Assembly: GCA_035548315.1 (NCBI GenBank)
Contig: DASZTF010000044.1
Location: forward strand, 159,615 to 223,614
Length of the DNA stretch: 64,000 nt
Reading direction: 5' to 3'
DNA from: Minisyncoccota bacterium
Lineage (GTDB): Bacteria; Patescibacteriota; Minisyncoccia; Phycocordibacterales; Phycocordibacteraceae
Shown in pieces: positions 7,980 through 12,907 of the stretch; position 1 is the stretch's first letter; the number at the start of each line of letters is the position of its first letter. Under the pieces are notes generated by a model. It worked only from the letters and a program-made list of their open reading frames with translations. It did not search any database and was not told the origin of the DNA. A program made the translations under genes and the position numbers.

Positions 7980-9161
7980 CTAGGCCTCAAGCTCGAGTTG
8001 CGGCTTATCAAGTGCAAGCGCTTCCACGCCGATCTTCTCTCCCGAGATGCGGTATACGTCTTTATCAATCTTGGCGAGTTCTTTGTGGCCGGAGTTAAAG
8101 TGCGAGACGACGGTGCCGAGCGCATTCCCCATCTTGCCGTAGAAGGTGTTCATGGAGTCGATGTGCTTCCCGAGTTCCCCCACGCGCTTCTGGATTTCTT
8201 CTGCGCGCTGTTCGATCTTGAGTGCGTTCAAGCCGAGGAGAACCGTTTGGAGGTAGGCCAAGAACGACGTCGGCGAGACGATGATGACTTTATATTTAGA
8301 AGCTGCACGCTGGAGTAGGTTCTCGTCTTCTCCGGCACCCACCTGATTGGTGAGCAGGTCGTAATAAATGCCTTCGGACGGGATGAACATAAATGCGAAG
8401 TCGAGGGTGTTCTCTTCTGGGCGAATATATTTCGCGGTTTCAGTAATGCGCAGCTTCAAATCATTCACGAAGGTCTTCTCAATAGCCGCGCGCTCGGATG
8501 GCTCGCAGTGTATGAGGCGATTGTAGTTATCGAGCGAGAACTTGGAGTCCACGGGCACGACTTTCCCATTCACGAACACGGCCGCATCCACGATTTCCCC
8601 ATTTTTAAATGGGTACTGTATCTGGTACCCGTCGGGCGGCAGCACGTTTTTGAGTGTCGTCTCAAGATAGTATTCGCCGAGGATGCCGCGCTGTTTAGGA
8701 TTTTTCAAAATATCCTGAAGGTCTTTCAGCTCTTCTGCAAAGCTTTGCGTCTGCCGACTGATCTCTTTCACACTCGTGAGCTCTTCGGTGATCTCACGCA
8801 CGAGCTTCATCGATTCAGAAGACTGCTTGTACGCACTGTCCTGCATCTCCCTGCTCGACTTCGCTACCCGATCATCGAGCGTGCGCTCAAGGTTCTGGAG
8901 CTGCTGCTGCAGGAGCAGCAGGTCACTCCCCGCTCCCGCTTTTGGGTCGCTATCCTGTTTACGCTGGCGCGAGATGAGCCACAGCCCCACGCCCTGGACC
9001 ACCACAAGCACAATGATGAGGACGCCGATTTCCGTGATCGTCATACCGTAAGTATACCTTGTAAATGAAAAGGGCCCGGCTTTATTTTCCGGTGCCCTGT
9101 TCTCCCACCATACGGCTTTACAAAGCGGCAGAAACTCTGCCATTTGTGACGACGAACGCAT
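7980..9161 (-). CDS. rmuC: DNA recombination protein RmuC
   Basis: N-terminal TM helix, coiled-coil, then conserved RmuC nuclease-like region (GILGEYYLETTLKNVLPPDGYQIQYPF...FAFMFIPSEGIYYDLL). Probable start at MTITEIG (9044). Confidence 0.85.
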   Translation of the reverse strand: MRSSSQMAEFLPLCKAVWWENRAPENKAGPFSFTRYTYGMTITEIGVLIIVLVVVQGVGLWLISRQRKQDSDPKAGAGSDLLLLQQQLQNLERTLDDRVAKSSREMQDSAYKQSSESMKLVREITEELTSVKEISRQTQSFAEELKDLQDILKNPKQRGILGEYYLETTLKNVLPPDGYQIQYPFKNGEIVDAAVFVNGKVVPVDSKFSLDNYNRLIHCEPSERAAIEKTFVNDLKLRITETAKYIRPEENTLDFAFMFIPSEGIYYDLLTNQVGAGEDENLLQRAASKYKVIIVSPTSFLAYLQTVLLGLNALKIEQRAEEIQKRVGELGKHIDSMNTFYGKMGNALGTVVSHFNSGHKELAKIDKDVYRISGEKIGVEALALDKPQLELEA

Positions 9162-9395
9162 TGCTGACGCGCAGATTCGAGGGAATTACTTCGAGTTCGA
9201 TCAGGAACGTGAACACCTCCTGCGTATCCCGCCGACGCACTGCAAGCAGCACGCGCCCGCCGATTTGGTCGATCCATGTCGGTTGTCCGACGAGGCAATA
9301 AGGAACACCTTCCTCGAGCTGGGACCATGGGTCCGTAGTAAAAGGAAGCGGCTTCAGTTTCGTGGCTGTACTCAACGCAACTTCTCCCGGTGTTG

Positions 9396-9425
9396 GTGCG
9401 GTAGTCTTTACCGCACGTGTATAAT
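9396..9425 (+). promoter_or_regulatory. Perfect 7-bp inverted repeat (gtgcggt-N7-accgcac) abutting a perfect TATAAT -10 hexamer, 62 nt upstream of yqeY
   Basis: ggtgcggtagtctttaccgcacgtgTATAATacc; candidate operator overlapping the promoter. Confidence 0.35.
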
Positions 9426-9487
9426 ACCATATTTATTAGGTATCGCAATGATTGCCTCGCGCACGGGGGTGCTATCATCAAACTCAT

Positions 9488-9940
9488 ATGGCAATTCATG
9501 AATCGATCAAAGCAGGCATCCCCGCTGCAATGCGCGCGAAGGATGAGGTGACGCTGCGCACGCTGCGCTCCCTTACGACCGCAATGACCAATGAGGTCGT
9601 CGCGAAGAAGCGCAAGCCGGATGAATTCCTCACCGACGAGGAGGCTATCACCGTACTCAAGCGTGCGAGCAATCAGCGCAAGGACTCCATCGAGCAGTTT
9701 GATAAAGCCGGTCGCGCCGACCTTTCGGAGCCCGAGAAGGCGGAACTCGTCGTAATCGAGTCCTACCTCCCCGCCATGATGAGTCGCGAGGAAATTGAAA
9801 CGGTCGTGAAAGCGAAGATCGCAGAAATGGGTGCAGACAAATCAAAAGCCGGTATGCTGATAGGCGCCGTGATGAAGGAGCTCAAGGGCACGGCAGATGG
9901 CGGCGATGTAAAGGCCGTGGTGGGTGCCCTTCTCGGATAA
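9488..9940 (+). CDS. yqeY: GatB/YqeY domain protein
   Basis: MAIHESIKAGIPAAMRAKDEVTLRTLRSL...MLIGAVMKELKGTADGGDVKAVV is a typical YqeY family protein. Confidence 0.85.
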   Translation: MAIHESIKAGIPAAMRAKDEVTLRTLRSLTTAMTNEVVAKKRKPDEFLTDEEAITVLKRASNQRKDSIEQFDKAGRADLSEPEKAELVVIESYLPAMMSREEIETVVKAKIAEMGADKSKAGMLIGAVMKELKGTADGGDVKAVVGALLG

Positions 9941-9943
9941 GGT

Positions 9944-10345
9944 ATGAGGGGTGCGGAAGGCCAGCGTAAAAGAAAAACACCCGCAGCAGAAGGAATAGAC
10001 CCCGCTGGTTTTATTCCTGAACCCAAAGAGCGCCGCGATGAGAAGGGCGAAGTCATTCCATTCATAAGTCCCGTGCGCCGAGAAATGCTACGCCAAGAAG
10101 TTCAAAAGCGCATAGACAATGGTATGGATTTTTATAGTGCATTCGACGAAGCGTTTAATCGCAGCACGTTCTGGAAACACAACCTCGACCCCGAGTTGCT
10201 CGGCGCATACGCGACGGTGATCTTCGACTCCTACGGTAAGGAATACCGCCCGCAGGACGACTGGTTCCATAAAGACATCGCGCCGTATGTCGCTGAGGAA
10301 CGCGCGGCGATGGATAGCGAATTCAAGTCCCCTAGCGAGAGGTAG
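9944..10345 (+). CDS. Hypothetical protein (lower-GC accessory region)
   Basis: 133 aa ORF with no recognisable motifs; local GC of about 52% against a genome background above 60%. Confidence 0.4.
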   Translation: MRGAEGQRKRKTPAAEGIDPAGFIPEPKERRDEKGEVIPFISPVRREMLRQEVQKRIDNGMDFYSAFDEAFNRSTFWKHNLDPELLGAYATVIFDSYGKEYRPQDDWFHKDIAPYVAEERAAMDSEFKSPSER

Positions 10346-10351
10346 GAAGTG

Positions 10352-10365
10352 TGATATAATGCGAC
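10352..10365 (+). promoter_or_regulatory. Extended -10 promoter element (TGaTATAAT)
   Basis: gtgTGaTATAATgcg, 55 nt upstream of the ATG at 10420, which has an aagggggt Shine-Dalgarno. Confidence 0.45.
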
Positions 10366-10419
10366 CGGGCGTAGGGTAATGGTGGCTAACCTTAAGCAAA
10401 ACAAGTTAAGGGGGTTACC

Positions 10420-10788
10420 ATGAGTATCGAAATTCCTGCACTGATCCTCTATCCGACGAAGTTCGGAATGGGAGAGATATTGGTGGCAGCACGCCTGCCA
10501 CCGCTTGGGGATATGCCGATCAAAGAAGTGTCCCGCAAGCTTGAGTTCTTGGTCGGCAAGTACAAGCATGAGTACAACAGGATCCCGACGTTCGATTTGG
10601 ACGTAAGCTGCCCTCGTTGCCAATTGCTGCTCCCGGGCAACACTTTCACCTGGGCGCGCGAACGAGCAAACGAGCTCTCGGTACGACTCAGAATCAGCCT
10701 TAACGTGCCCAGCATGATGTGTGCCGTGCGGGGCGACAATAATGCCGTGCGTCGGGCTCTTTTCGAAGCGCATTCGGGAGTACACTGA
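10420..10788 (+). CDS. Hypothetical protein
   Basis: 122 aa. Has its own extended -10 and strong Shine-Dalgarno. Overlapping minus-strand ORFs were judged spurious. Confidence 0.5.
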   Translation: MSIEIPALILYPTKFGMGEILVAARLPPLGDMPIKEVSRKLEFLVGKYKHEYNRIPTFDLDVSCPRCQLLLPGNTFTWARERANELSVRLRISLNVPSMMCAVRGDNNAVRRALFEAHSGVH

Positions 10789-10930
10789 CCATCGACACAC
10801 CGCACGTGTAGGAGTTGCTGCAGAATGCAGCGCTCCTCACGGGGCGGTTTTTGTTTTCCCCACCCTACTTGCGTTTTCTGTAGCATGTGCTATTCTGGAG
10901 ACGTTCTCAACCAACCAGGGGAGGCACTTC

Positions 10931-11317
10931 GTGCCAAAAAGAAAGCTCTTTGGAAAAACCAAGAACCGTTTTACAGACTCCGCGCTTGGGGAAACCCGAC
11001 CGCGCACGTTCTGGAAAACGACCGCAATCATCTTCCTCACCGGCGTGTGTATCGCGCTTGGTGTAGGGTTTGAGTCTGCAATGGAAGACATGCTCCCGAA
11101 CGTAGGCCGCTACCAGGACCTTCAGGTCCAGTACGGTCCCATCTTTCACGGAGCAATGAAAACCGAGATCGAGCGCGTGGCACGCACGATAGACCAAGAT
11201 TTGGCTATCTCGACCACCTGTCTCGTACTTCTCGGATTCTGTTTGATCTGGAACCTCGTGCTCATAACACGTCGTATCCTGATTCACGCCGCATGGCGTT
11301 CTCACGCGACTCGCTGA
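10931..11317 (+). CDS. Hypothetical membrane protein (two TM helices), GTG start
   Basis: ggggagg Shine-Dalgarno 7 nt before GTG. TM helices TTAIIFLTGVCIALGVGF and LVLLGFCLIWNLVLI. The track ORF starts earlier at 10721. Confidence 0.4.
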   Translation: MPKRKLFGKTKNRFTDSALGETRPRTFWKTTAIIFLTGVCIALGVGFESAMEDMLPNVGRYQDLQVQYGPIFHGAMKTEIERVARTIDQDLAISTTCLVLLGFCLIWNLVLITRRILIHAAWRSHATR

Positions 11318-11494
11318 TTGCGGACCCGGTCCGCAATGCTACGATTCACCATCAACTAATGGAGGTATCCATGGTACATGCTTATGTATGTCACATCACT
11401 ACCAACGTTCTTGTATGAATGAACCGCACAGTGTTGCGGACCGTTTACGTTCTACTTCATTTCCCCGCCCCTTTCTGGTATAAAAAGAGCACTT

Positions 11495-11566
11495 GGCCCT
11501 ATCGTCTAACGGTTAGGACGGAGCCTTCTCAAGGCTTAAATCGGGGTTCGATTCCCCGTAGGGTCA
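11495..11566 (+). tRNA. tRNA-Glu (anticodon CUC)
   Basis: Manual cloverleaf: acceptor GGCCCTA/TAGGGTC, D-stem GTCT/GGAC, anticodon stem GAGCC/GGCTT, loop TTCTCAA, 4-nt variable loop, T-arm CGGGG-TTCGATT-CCCCG. No encoded CCA. Confidence 0.8.
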
Positions 11567-11571
11567 CATTC

Positions 11572-11600
11572 TTGACGTCTAAGTTTAAATAATGTATAGT
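11572..11600 (+). promoter_or_regulatory. Strong sigma70-like promoter (-35 TTGACG, 17-bp spacer, -10 TATAGT) immediately downstream of tRNA-Glu
   Basis: cTTGACGtctaagtttaaataatgTATAGTtaaat; drives the 11641 ORF. Confidence 0.55.
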
Positions 11601-11640
11601 TAAATAGTCACGACTGCTGAAGAATGGTCTTTACGCGTCG

Positions 11641-12378
11641 ATGACAAGCTCCCCGATTATCCGGGACAGCTCTCACACTGGAGAAATCCACATGAGTCGT
11701 TCATCACCGACTGCAGGTCAAATTCGTAAATTCTTGGATCTCCTCGAGCAGCATGGAGTCACGAGAGAGAATTTCCAGAAACGTCTCAGCTCTGCAGCAC
11801 TCGCCGATCTTTTCAATCCCGCAGCCGACCTCGAAGACTACGAGGCATGGCGCCTCGCACTCAAGCTCGGCATCGTGATGCCGGACGTTTTCACTATCCC
11901 CGTTGACTACGGTCTCTCCCCTGCTCAAATGATCGAGCTCGGTCACTACGACGGCCCGTATGGCCACGAAGACCGCGTGTCGTTCGAGGGCAAGGGGAAG
12001 GTCGAATTCGAAGCTCGGTACTTTCACTTCGCGGAAAGAAAGCCGAACGCTGAGGTATTCGAAGCTATGGTTACCGCCGACGCGCGGAATCAATGGTCGC
12101 CGGCAGGAGTTGAGCATCTGCTTTCTTTCGGCATCAAGTATCCCCATGAGCAGCGCAAGTTCAAGGTCGTTGCACTGGCTAATCCCGTACCCGTCAGAGA
12201 AAATGAGCAGCTTGGGAGTAGCATTAGTTACTTTTCCCTCGGAATGTCAGGACCCAAGTATGATAGTGGACGTCAGAGGGTTTTCTGCTCTGAGTACTAC
12301 TCGGAAACCGGGTTCAATCTGAGGTTCTGGGAACCGAATATACGCTTTTTAGCGGTCCGGAAACCACGGGTAGCTTGA
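11641..12378 (+). CDS. Hypothetical protein (245 aa), low-GC accessory gene next to tRNA-Glu
   Basis: No recognisable domain. AT-rich flanks; preceded by a strong promoter and followed by a terminator. An internal Met (MSRSS, 11689) may be the start. Confidence 0.55.
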   Translation: MTSSPIIRDSSHTGEIHMSRSSPTAGQIRKFLDLLEQHGVTRENFQKRLSSAALADLFNPAADLEDYEAWRLALKLGIVMPDVFTIPVDYGLSPAQMIELGHYDGPYGHEDRVSFEGKGKVEFEARYFHFAERKPNAEVFEAMVTADARNQWSPAGVEHLLSFGIKYPHEQRKFKVVALANPVPVRENEQLGSSISYFSLGMSGPKYDSGRQRVFCSEYYSETGFNLRFWEPNIRFLAVRKPRVA

Positions 12379-12392
12379 GACAAACAATTCAA

Positions 12393-12435
12393 AACGGGCG
12401 CCGACAAAGAGAGTCGGTGCCCGTTCTAATTTATT
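12393..12435. terminator. Bidirectional rho-independent terminator between convergent genes
   Basis: aacgggcgccgac-aaagagag-tcggtgcccgtt followed by ctaatttatt. Confidence 0.65.
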
Positions 12436-12445
12436 GCCACGATCG

Positions 12446-12907
12446 TTACCACAATATTGTCCCCTCGTTATTTACTTGAATTGAGGTTGAGGCATCACCT
12501 TGGGACAGATCAATCTCGGCTGGAGAGGTGGTGCCGGAGAGCTGCGTGAATATGATCTCGTTTCCTGAACCGCAGGTTGGAACACCGGAAACGATGACGC
12601 TCGCGGACTTGGTTCCGTACTCTTCCTTCGCATTGCTCGCGTAGGGTGATCTGAATACTTCATATACACCGATCGCGTCATAGCAGAAACCATGCGGAAC
12701 ATTGCTGTCGTTCCCCATCGCGCGGCTGCGCGCTCGAGAAAGCAGCGCCACGATGAGATCTCGTTCTCCCGTGATGTTTGCGCGGGAGTACGGGAAGAAC
12801 GTGCTCCGTATCCCAAGACCCAGCACGATGCCTAATAGCGCGAGCGTCACGAGCACCTCAAGGAGGGTAAATCCGCTAGCGCGCATTGAGGTGCTGCGTG
12901 ATTTCAT
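12446..12907 (-). CDS. Type IV pilin/pseudopilin (prepilin-type N-terminal cleavage/methylation domain)
   Basis: MRASG|FTLLEVLVTLALLGIVLGLGI is a class III signal peptide with a G-F cleavage site, E+5, and hydrophobic helix. Confidence 0.8.
   Translation of the reverse strand: MKSRSTSMRASGFTLLEVLVTLALLGIVLGLGIRSTFFPYSRANITGERDLIVALLSRARSRAMGNDSNVPHGFCYDAIGVYEVFRSPYASNAKEEYGTKSASVIVSGVPTCGSGNEIIFTQLSGTTSPAEIDLSQGDASTSIQVNNEGTILW

Follow-up and report, generated by a model that had tools for sequence, protein, structure and literature searches.

How did four short genes come to lie on the two sides of a tRNA-Glu gene, between yqeY and a pilin-like gene, in a Minisyncoccota bacterium? The original prediction for this DNA, a window of 64 kb (the whole stretch that was analyzed), described positions 9944-12440 as an old or decayed island. 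The explanation that we favor, as a probable though far from secure one, is that a hotspot at which genes are gained, lost, and replaced surrounds the tRNA-Glu(CTC) unit across the lineage and that the stretch is what this genome carries there, assembled in at least three layers. The hotspot would be bordered by yqeY to its left and by operons for the cell envelope or pili to its right.

Composition and gene content

The lower GC and the AT-rich intergenic DNA that set the stretch apart are borne out by calculation. The GC content of 9944-12440 is 52.5% versus 58.5% across the window, which is the 4th lowest value among 1231 equal-length sliding windows and about 3.3 sd low; ORF1 to ORF4 have a GC of 53-55%, and their spacers have 36-49%. 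GC3 is 0.59, 0.66, 0.63, and 0.59 for ORF1, ORF2, ORF3, and ORF4, respectively, relative to a window mean of 0.705 (sd 0.062). Uniform composition had been named as a reason to doubt accessory status, and the outcome is divided: GC and GC3 are low, as expected for accessory DNA, and the codon-usage scores of the four ORFs are only 0.3-0.8 sd low, i.e., mildly atypical. The low-GC zone also exceeds the stretch itself, with rmuC (7980-9161) at 53% and the pilin-like gene at 54%. We take the view that the lower GC reflects accessory, fast-turnover cargo.

The features of the region are collected in Table 1. The tRNA-Glu gene was found where predicted, the extended -10 sequence TGaTATAAT (10352-10360) and the GGGGG Shine-Dalgarno site can be read in the sequence, and the TTGACG-17-TATAGT promoter and the terminator after ORF4 were both recovered by scan; the count of promoter- and terminator-type motifs in 9-13 kb shows no excess over the shuffled expectation. 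A 9-mer said to recur within two hairpins does recur, at 11318 and 11434 rather than at the positions first given, with copy 1 in a perfect 9-bp hairpin and copy 2 in a hairpin of 5 bp; one such pair per 4 kb is the chance expectation. The 9-bp hairpin, which has no T tract, may serve as a terminator for ORF3. Searches of Pfam, PHROG, PADLOC, NCBIfam, and PDB sequences with ORF1-4 gave zero matches, PADLOC thus offering no candidate for anti-phage defense, and Rfam over 9-13 kb matched tRNA-Glu only. The description of the four ORFs as lacking domains therefore stands; their description as orphans fails for ORF1, ORF3, and ORF4, which have homologs, and is replaced for ORF2 by a restriction to near-identical strains. 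The start first assigned to ORF4, 11641, gives way to 11692, with GGAG 8 nt upstream and a 228-aa protein called in both NCBI and Logan data. To the right, the pilin-like gene is followed in the core block by T2SSF, T2SSE, ftsW, and mraY.

Table 1. Features of positions 9491-12907 of the window
Feature	Position	Strand	Remark
yqeY	9491..9940	+	Left anchor of hotspot; Pfam YqeY 1.6e-38
ORF1, 133 aa	9944..10345	+	Lineage-specific; 3-nt gap after yqeY
Extended -10 promoter-like site TGTGATATAAT, 5' of ORF2	10350..10360	+	Sequence reading; putative function
ORF2, 122 aa, GGGGG Shine-Dalgarno	10420..10788	+	Strain-restricted
Terminator-like hairpin and T run, 3' of ORF2	10831..10856	+	Terminator scan
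ORF3, 128 aa, GTG start, Shine-Dalgarno GGGGAGG	10931..11317	+	Two transmembrane helices
Perfect 9-bp hairpin ATTGCGGAC-CCG-GTCCGCAAT, ORF3 stop	11317..11337	+	Sequence reading
Extended -10 site TGGTATAAA of tRNA unit	11476..11484	+	Motif recurs in relatives
tRNA-Glu(CTC)	11495..11567	+	Central anchor; ARAGORN; Rfam 61.5 bits
ORF4 cassette, 882 bp	11568..12449	+	Missing from sister strain L088
ORF4 promoter TTGACG-17-TATAGT	11572-11600	+	Promoter scan
ORF4, 228 aa, Shine-Dalgarno GGAG	11692..12378	+	Member of large unnamed Patescibacteria family
ORF4 terminator, 13-bp stem (12393-12425) and T tract	12393-12435	+	Terminator scan
Degenerate tRNA 3'-end copy, 10/17	12433..12449	+	Right edge of ORF4 cassette
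Pilin-like gene	12446..12907	-	Pfam N_methyl; opens right-hand core block

Histories of ORF1, ORF2, and ORF3

ORF1 is not island cargo but a partner of yqeY that is specific to the lineage. Its homologs (97, 67, 63, and 48% identity) each begin 2-6 nt past a gene of about 150 aa, which is a Pfam YqeY in L086, L087, and L088 and matches YqeY in size and spacing on two short contigs. A profile of the ORF1 family also matches the ORF immediately 3' of yqeY in a further relative, L015, and the position directly after yqeY is kept in all relatives that have ORF1. Within the subclade, ORF1 has probably been passed on vertically, and it is probably cotranslated with yqeY. ORF3, a small membrane protein judging from its two hydrophobic segments, is likewise old in the subclade: it has a syntenic homolog in L086 (27% identity, pairwise E value of 2e-11), and its codon changes relative to the close strains are 8 synonymous/0 nonsynonymous and 8/2. 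For ORF2, a word-indexed search of 5.8 billion proteins returned a single homolog, a 97% identical strain variant; L086 has an unrelated 87-aa ORF in its place, and the spacer 5' of ORF2 (10346-10419) is 100% conserved in the sister strains.

The closest DNA available for comparison comes from two sister contigs, L087 and L088, which are short, single-run Logan assemblies of 2.8 and 3.1 kb (SRR32489432 and SRR32489437). ORF1-3 are found in all close strains, and the block that they form is 2.3% diverged from the two sister contigs, whose yqeY genes are about 10% diverged. Relative to L088, the divergence is 9.7% in yqeY versus 2.3% over 9941-11440 (Fisher p=1e-10), and the outer flanks are more distant still, with identities of 72% for rmuC (L087), 80% for the pilin gene, and 74% for T2SSF (both L088). 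Because the block is shared while the core flanks are far more diverged, replacement by recombination is suggested, and the ORF1-3 block may have been exchanged recently; the comparison of 98% identity in the block with 72-90% in the flanks is drawn from the contigs alone, and either may be the outlier. A chimeric assembly could mimic such a mosaic; the two runs agree.

The tRNA-Glu site in relatives and the ORF4 cassette

Is this site variable elsewhere in the lineage? Across about 80 related Paceibacteria genomes or loci (CPR/Patescibacteria), rmuC and yqeY are adjacent in 78 of 80, and in most of them the gene order is preserved on the left side of yqeY and broken immediately past it. Where a relative offers enough DNA, tRNA-Glu is nearly always present downstream of yqeY, at a distance of 17-8591 bp and on either strand. 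The variable DNA between and beyond these anchors amounts to 0-8.6 kb and differs in nearly every genome; the ORFs fall into 533 clusters, and those in the gap are mostly singletons. This filler has a GC content below that of its flanks in 48 of 53 loci (p=1e-8). The usual right flank in relatives is murF-ftsI-rsmH-mraZ, and where the tRNA and murF share an orientation, the tRNA lies 41-53 bp past murF in 20 of 27 loci, with the variable DNA on the 3' side of the tRNA. The extended -10 site TGGTATAAA also precedes tRNA-Glu in L055, L028, and L088 (in L015, as the variant TGTTATAAA) and moves along with the tRNA in inverted units. In four relatives (L021, L026, L064, and L049), a large serine recombinase lies on the 3' side of the tRNA, convergent with it.

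The comparison thus sustains the proposal of accessory DNA beside the tRNA: the site is hypervariable, none of ORF2-4 was found at it in the 80 related genomes apart from the syntenic ORF3 homolog in L086, and ORF4 is present or absent between strains. Conservation in syntenic position, which had been named as the contrary outcome, applies to ORF1 and ORF3 within the subclade and weakens the proposal to that extent; no relative has a counterpart of ORF2 or ORF4 at the site, in agreement with the proposal.

ORF4 lies in a cassette that begins at the first base past tRNA-Glu. In L088, which lacks it, the 3' end of the tRNA directly abuts the pilin stop, and a cassette-free form of the window's locus would thus join the tRNA end straight onto CACAATATTG. 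The degenerate copy of the tRNA end stands in the exact register expected from that junction, and a 17-mer match as good as 10/17 occurs at only 0.3% of window positions; as a tRNA-end repeat, this copy is suggestive only. The original prediction had reported no integrase and no obvious direct repeat of the tRNA 3' end, and our results agree on both counts: no tRNA-end repeat with 3 or fewer mismatches occurs elsewhere in the 64 kb, which also contains no serine-recombinase homolog, and ORF1-4 have no integrase domain in Pfam and housekeeping neighbors on both sides, the search for tyrosine integrases having covered part of the window. Since the window offers neither a recombinase or transposase nor a clear att repeat, we infer integration here from the relatives. 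ORF4 could also have been lost by deletion in L088 instead of gained here.

ORF4 belongs to a very large family, of 5,200 cluster representatives, that is named in no database. Its relatives occur as stand-alone genes whose surroundings are unrelated, and a profile of the family found no member at this site in any related locus. A structure prediction based on a 67-sequence alignment (a 3-sequence version gave a pLDDT of 43) points to a helical part at the N terminus and a C-type-lectin-like domain at the C terminus, with weak Foldseek E values of 0.07 and above. Bacterial proteins with a C-type-lectin fold include the variable proteins of diversity-generating retroelements (Mtd and TvpA), FGE-like domains, and adhesin tips; ORF4 differs from these in having no sequence similarity to them, no signal peptide, and no template repeat in the window. 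The idea that ORF4 is itself a retroelement variable protein was dropped, given the missing template repeat and the fact that ORF4 DNA is unrepeated in the 64 kb; the annotated neighbors of ORF4 include no reverse transcriptase. A viral origin was also dropped, as IMG/VR contains no relatives of ORF4 and no viral structure gave a meaningful match.

Explanations weighed

Could the stretch still be one old island, integrated at tRNA-Glu, whose integrase and att sites have since been lost? The low GC, the adjoining tRNA, the serine-recombinase islands at the same tRNA in relatives, and the degenerate repeat would all fit, and the part of the original proposal that places variable DNA by the tRNA holds. 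However, the stretch occupies both sides of the tRNA, which differ in history; within the subclade, ORF1 is fixed after yqeY, and L086 has a syntenic ORF3; ORF4 varies between strains independently of ORF1-3; and no integrase was found. A single island is largely refuted by these independent histories of its parts, and we consider it quite improbable. Somewhat less so, though still unlikely, is a purely vertical origin, in which ordinary, fast-evolving small CPR genes owe their low GC to being short and weakly expressed among AT-rich spacers, with no transfer, and L088 simply deleted ORF4. Codon usage in the normal range, core genes (rmuC and the pilin gene) with equally low GC, the synteny of ORF1 and ORF3 in relatives, and the lack of mobility genes are consistent with this account. 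What is hard to reconcile with vertical descent is the fivefold drop in divergence confined to 9941-11440, and further against it are the absence of any counterpart of ORF2 and ORF4 at the site in any relative and a turnover of site content in every related genome.

The least credible reading is that not all of the ORFs are genuine genes and that the stretch is mostly noncoding spacer or RNA. ORF2 is where such doubt would lodge, since its codon changes relative to the strains (5 synonymous and 4 nonsynonymous) are uninformative and a 189-aa antisense ORF overlaps it. Nonetheless, diverged homologs exist for the proteins of ORF1, ORF3, and ORF4, all four ORFs show GC1>GC2<GC3 periodicity, Shine-Dalgarno sites and terminators lie on the plus strand, and Rfam matched nothing besides the tRNA.

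We therefore return to the layered hotspot as the preferred explanation. In this model, the first layer would be ORF1 as the partner of yqeY, vertical in the subclade, with ORF3 old too. The second would be the ORF1-ORF3 block, made up largely of self-contained one-gene units and recently shared among genomes with more diverged flanks. The third would be ORF4 with its own promoter and terminator, inserted exactly at the 3' end of the tRNA or else lost in the sister strain; the putative insertion point is where the recombinase-bearing islands of relatives sit, and the cassette would now be immobile, having no recombinase and a decayed repeat only.

How does such a locus compare with known systems? 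Like tRNA-linked islands, it has cargo at the 3' end of a tRNA (true of the ORF4 cassette, not of ORF1-3 on the 5' side), lower GC, presence or absence among strains, and, in relatives, a recombinase convergent with the tRNA. Unlike them, it lacks an integrase and a clear att duplication in the window, its inserted unit consists of a lone 882-bp gene cassette, and the 5' side of the tRNA has variable DNA as well. Chromosomal hotspots of horizontal gene transfer, or flexible genomic islands between conserved core genes, are an established concept, and the resemblance here extends to conserved core flanks, content that differs per genome, tRNA association, and mosaic identity pointing to recombination. 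The differences are the tiny scale (one to four short genes), the CPR host, and an inner tRNA unit that changes orientation among relatives. The feature is thus an ordinary, familiar, and well-documented form of genome plasticity and comes as no surprise; the literature on Patescibacteria islands at tRNAs yielded nothing directly relevant. Its interest is the comparative evidence that very small Patescibacteria genomes, too, keep a defined site for swapping small, self-contained genes between lineages and that ORF4, first taken as an orphan, is part of so large a family; together, hotspot and family offer a concrete place to seek strain-specific functions, e.g., host interaction.

The more unusual by-products of this work, the flipping tRNA unit and an undescribed structured element of 149 nt, both belong to the relatives and not to the window. 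The element lies right after tRNA-Glu in many relatives and includes the 3'-end sequence of the tRNA both as a copy and as its complement. Repeated tRNA 3' ends in relatives had been considered as integration scars, a notion that was dropped because most of them are the 3' end of this conserved element. We can only speculate, and give the idea very little credence, that the tRNA-Glu unit is a dedicated landing pad for cassette exchange in which the element, as RNA or folded single-stranded DNA, guides or templates recombination, the window's ORF4 cassette and degenerate 17-mer being the product after loss of the element. If true, such a landing pad would explain why cargo turns over constantly and why the tRNA unit has flipped repeatedly.

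A cassette hotspot around tRNA-Glu

The region between yqeY and the pilin-like gene (9944-12440), which carries the four small plus-strand genes ORF1 to ORF4, makes up a cassette hotspot around tRNA-Glu that is small and built in several layers; features of this kind are already known. The original prediction of one old or decayed island had the right idea about ORF4 and about the locus taken together, but the region is not one element, and ORF1 belongs with yqeY.

We compared 80 related loci (YqeY 68 to 84% identical) drawn from a YqeY scan of GTDB species genomes. rmuC adjoins yqeY in 78 of the 80, synteny to the left holds in most loci and breaks off at yqeY, and tblastn found ORF1 to ORF4 in none of the 80. 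tRNA-Glu(CTC) follows yqeY at +17 to +8591 bp, on either strand, in almost every locus that has sufficient DNA. The right flank is usually murF-ftsI-ftsL-rsmH-mraZ; two relatives, L086 and L015, share the window's order of pilus/T2SS genes and then ftsW-mraY. The filler between these anchors consists for the most part of singleton ORF clusters (recurring examples are a response regulator and genes resembling TruB and AstE/AspA), and its GC falls short of flank GC in 48 of 53 loci (mean difference, -3.3 points; p=1e-8). Among the 27 loci where tRNA and murF run in the same direction, 20 have the tRNA 41 to 53 bp behind murF, and the variable DNA is on the tRNA's 3' side; in the opposite orientation, variable DNA lies on both sides. 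Four loci have a large serine recombinase, with the Pfam domains Resolvase, Recombinase, and Zn_ribbon_recom, convergent with the tRNA 3' end. Taken together, these comparisons make the tRNA-Glu site a hotspot throughout the lineage.

Two further observations concern yqeY, whose product has a domain akin to GatB's tRNA-binding tail. The gene stays next to tRNA-Glu lineage-wide (window and related loci L003 to L082) despite the turnover between them, and this proximity may be a coincidence or may mark a functional link. Also, variation is found at a second spot, the rmuC-yqeY spacer, which ranges from 13 bp to ~3.7 kb among L003 to L082; in the window it measures 330 bp and holds an 85-aa antisense ORF predicted by one pipeline.

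The lower GC that had been predicted for the region was borne out (52.5% versus 58.5% for the window; fourth lowest among 1,231 equal-length sliding windows), with genes at 53 to 55% and spacers at 36 to 49%. The dip is real but modest: GC3 of ORF1 to ORF4 is 0.59 to 0.66 where the window averages 0.705 (sd 0.062), their synonymous codon usage is just 0.3 to 0.8 sd low, and the dip takes in rmuC, at 53%, as well as the pilin gene, at 54%. A motif scan recovered the predicted promoter at 11572-11600 and terminator at 12393-12425, and motif numbers in the region show no excess over shuffled expectation. The recurring 9-mer does occur twice, at 11318 and 11434, but a strong hairpin surrounds the first copy only.

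Features of the tRNA-Glu site in the window and in related loci
Feature	Locus	Coordinates	Strand
tRNA-Glu(CTC)	window	11495-11567	
yqeY	window	9491-9940	+
rmuC-yqeY spacer	window	9162-9490	
Pilin-like gene	window	12446-12907	-
14-nt repeat, ORF1 copy	window	10164-10177	
14-nt repeat, ORF3 copy	window	11004-11017	
15-codon ORF	window	11361-11418	+
~149-nt element	L058	10923-11071	+
~149-nt element	L049	3402-3550	-
~149-nt element	L017	16256-16404	-
~149-nt element	L095	8787-8935	+
~149-nt element	L097	4965-5113	-
~135-bp tRNA unit, clearest opposite-orientation pair	L055	12065-12197	
(same pair)	L028	13372-13504	
GIY-YIG gene directly upstream of tRNA-Glu	L088 (sister strain)	2029-2416	
GIY-YIG gene directly upstream of tRNA-Glu	L050	10863-11187	

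ORF1 to ORF3 and the sister strains

ORF1 is a yqeY partner conserved in the subclade. Its homologs (97, 67, 63, and 48% identity) each lie 2 to 6 nt behind a ~150-aa gene, identified as Pfam YqeY in L086 and in the sister-strain contigs L087 and L088 and fitting yqeY by size and spacing in two short contigs; in L015, the ORF right after yqeY is matched by the ORF1 family HMM. ORF3, with two hydrophobic helices, has a syntenic homolog in L086 (27% identity; pairwise E, 2e-11). The single relative found for ORF2 is a 97% strain variant, and L086 has an unrelated ORF at that position.

The L087 and L088 sequences come from different runs, and both align to 9486-11506 with no gaps. The window diverges from L088 by 9.7% in yqeY and by 2.3% across 9941-11440 (Fisher p=1e-10), with divergence climbing again upstream of the tRNA, and synonymous changes are ~5x rarer in ORF1 to ORF3 than in yqeY. 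Outside the block, identity to the window is 72% for rmuC (L087), 80% for the pilin gene, and 74% for a T2SSF fragment (both L088). The block between the anchors goes back to a younger common ancestor than the flanks do, which we read as recent exchange, with the caveat that the contigs are short.

Separately, the pilin-like protein is 79% identical to that of the sister strain, against 97 to 100% for the nearby ORF1 to ORF3 proteins, a contrast that fits either fast pilin diversification or replacement. ORF1 and ORF3 share an exact 14-nt repeat, GCACGTTCTGGAAA, encoding TFWK in both (chance expectation, ~0.03 such pairs per 4 kb). In the ORF3-tRNA spacer, a 15-codon ORF, MVHAYVCHITTNVLV, lies behind a strong GGAGG Shine-Dalgarno sequence; 2 of its 15 residues differ in sister strains, and it is not clearly a gene.

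The ORF4 cassette and its family

In L088, the tRNA 3' end (...GGGTCACCACAGTATCG) joins the pilin stop directly; at that junction the window has an extra 882 bp (11568-12449) comprising promoter, ORF4, and terminator. This insert ends in 17 bp, ATTGCCACGATCGTTAC, of which 10 agree with the tRNA 3' end when set in the register that the junction predicts; just 0.3% of window positions match as well as this. This suggests a decayed repeat but is not proof. Instead of the cassette, ~300 bp are inserted 5' of the tRNA in L088; they hold a GIY-YIG gene together with a duplicate of the tRNA 5' part.

ORF4 starts at 11692, not at 11641 as first proposed, and is identical to NCBI protein VHC20_02515; the exact window proteins are present in sample SRR12170511, and the window belongs to a 'Candidatus Paceibacterota' genome (CPR/Patescibacteria) assembled from a metagenome. 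All four ORFs had been called orphans without recognized domains. The latter part stands, with no match in Pfam, PHROGs, PADLOC, or NCBIfam and none in PDB by sequence, but ORF4 is not an orphan: a word-indexed search gave two relatives, and a full profile search gave 5,200 cluster representatives at E<=1e-3 (2,981 at E<=1e-10). Most members are ~200 aa, and some carry the C-terminal domain (~140 aa) in two or three copies. Those members that bear a name are called hypothetical proteins, one of them in the Patescibacteria group, and none of 67 members scored above threshold in Pfam. Relatives stand alone in unrelated contexts, one amid toxin-antitoxin-like genes. ORF4 has no signal peptide, membrane segment, template repeat, or viral relative. 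As a side observation, this family, which comprises 5,200 or more clusters at 50% identity, lacks a Pfam entry and has a conserved C-terminal motif, RFLAVRK.

A structured element and a tRNA unit of varying orientation in relatives

An undescribed structured element of ~149 nt follows tRNA-Glu (CTC or TTC) in 17 related loci and 8 metagenome contigs, on the same strand and 17 to 40 nt downstream; it is not in Rfam or viral contigs and is absent from the window. The last 15 to 16 nt of the tRNA are repeated at the element's 3' end, and their complement, split by a hairpin, lies in the element's 5' part. Compensatory changes occur in 35 of 48 base pairs (23 sequences), with a covariation score of 0.415 versus 0.16 for shuffles and 0.04 to 0.10 for slid controls. 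In L049, a 5.5-kb recombinase island separates tRNA and element.

The tRNA itself sits in a ~135-bp unit (TGGTATAAA promoter, tRNA-Glu, and terminator) that occurs in either orientation between the same flanks among L003 to L082. A rough neighbor-joining tree (RmuC plus YqeY) implies that orientation changed 14 times or more among 59 genomes, a count that recombination between lineages could inflate. No inverted repeats were seen flanking the unit. At the tRNA 5' end, L088 and L050 have a small GIY-YIG gene; in L088 it is accompanied by an interrupted duplicate of the tRNA's first 28 nt, as though a gene for a mobile endonuclease had landed there; duplications of the tRNA 5' part (25 to 28 nt) also occur in two other relatives, L043 and L007.
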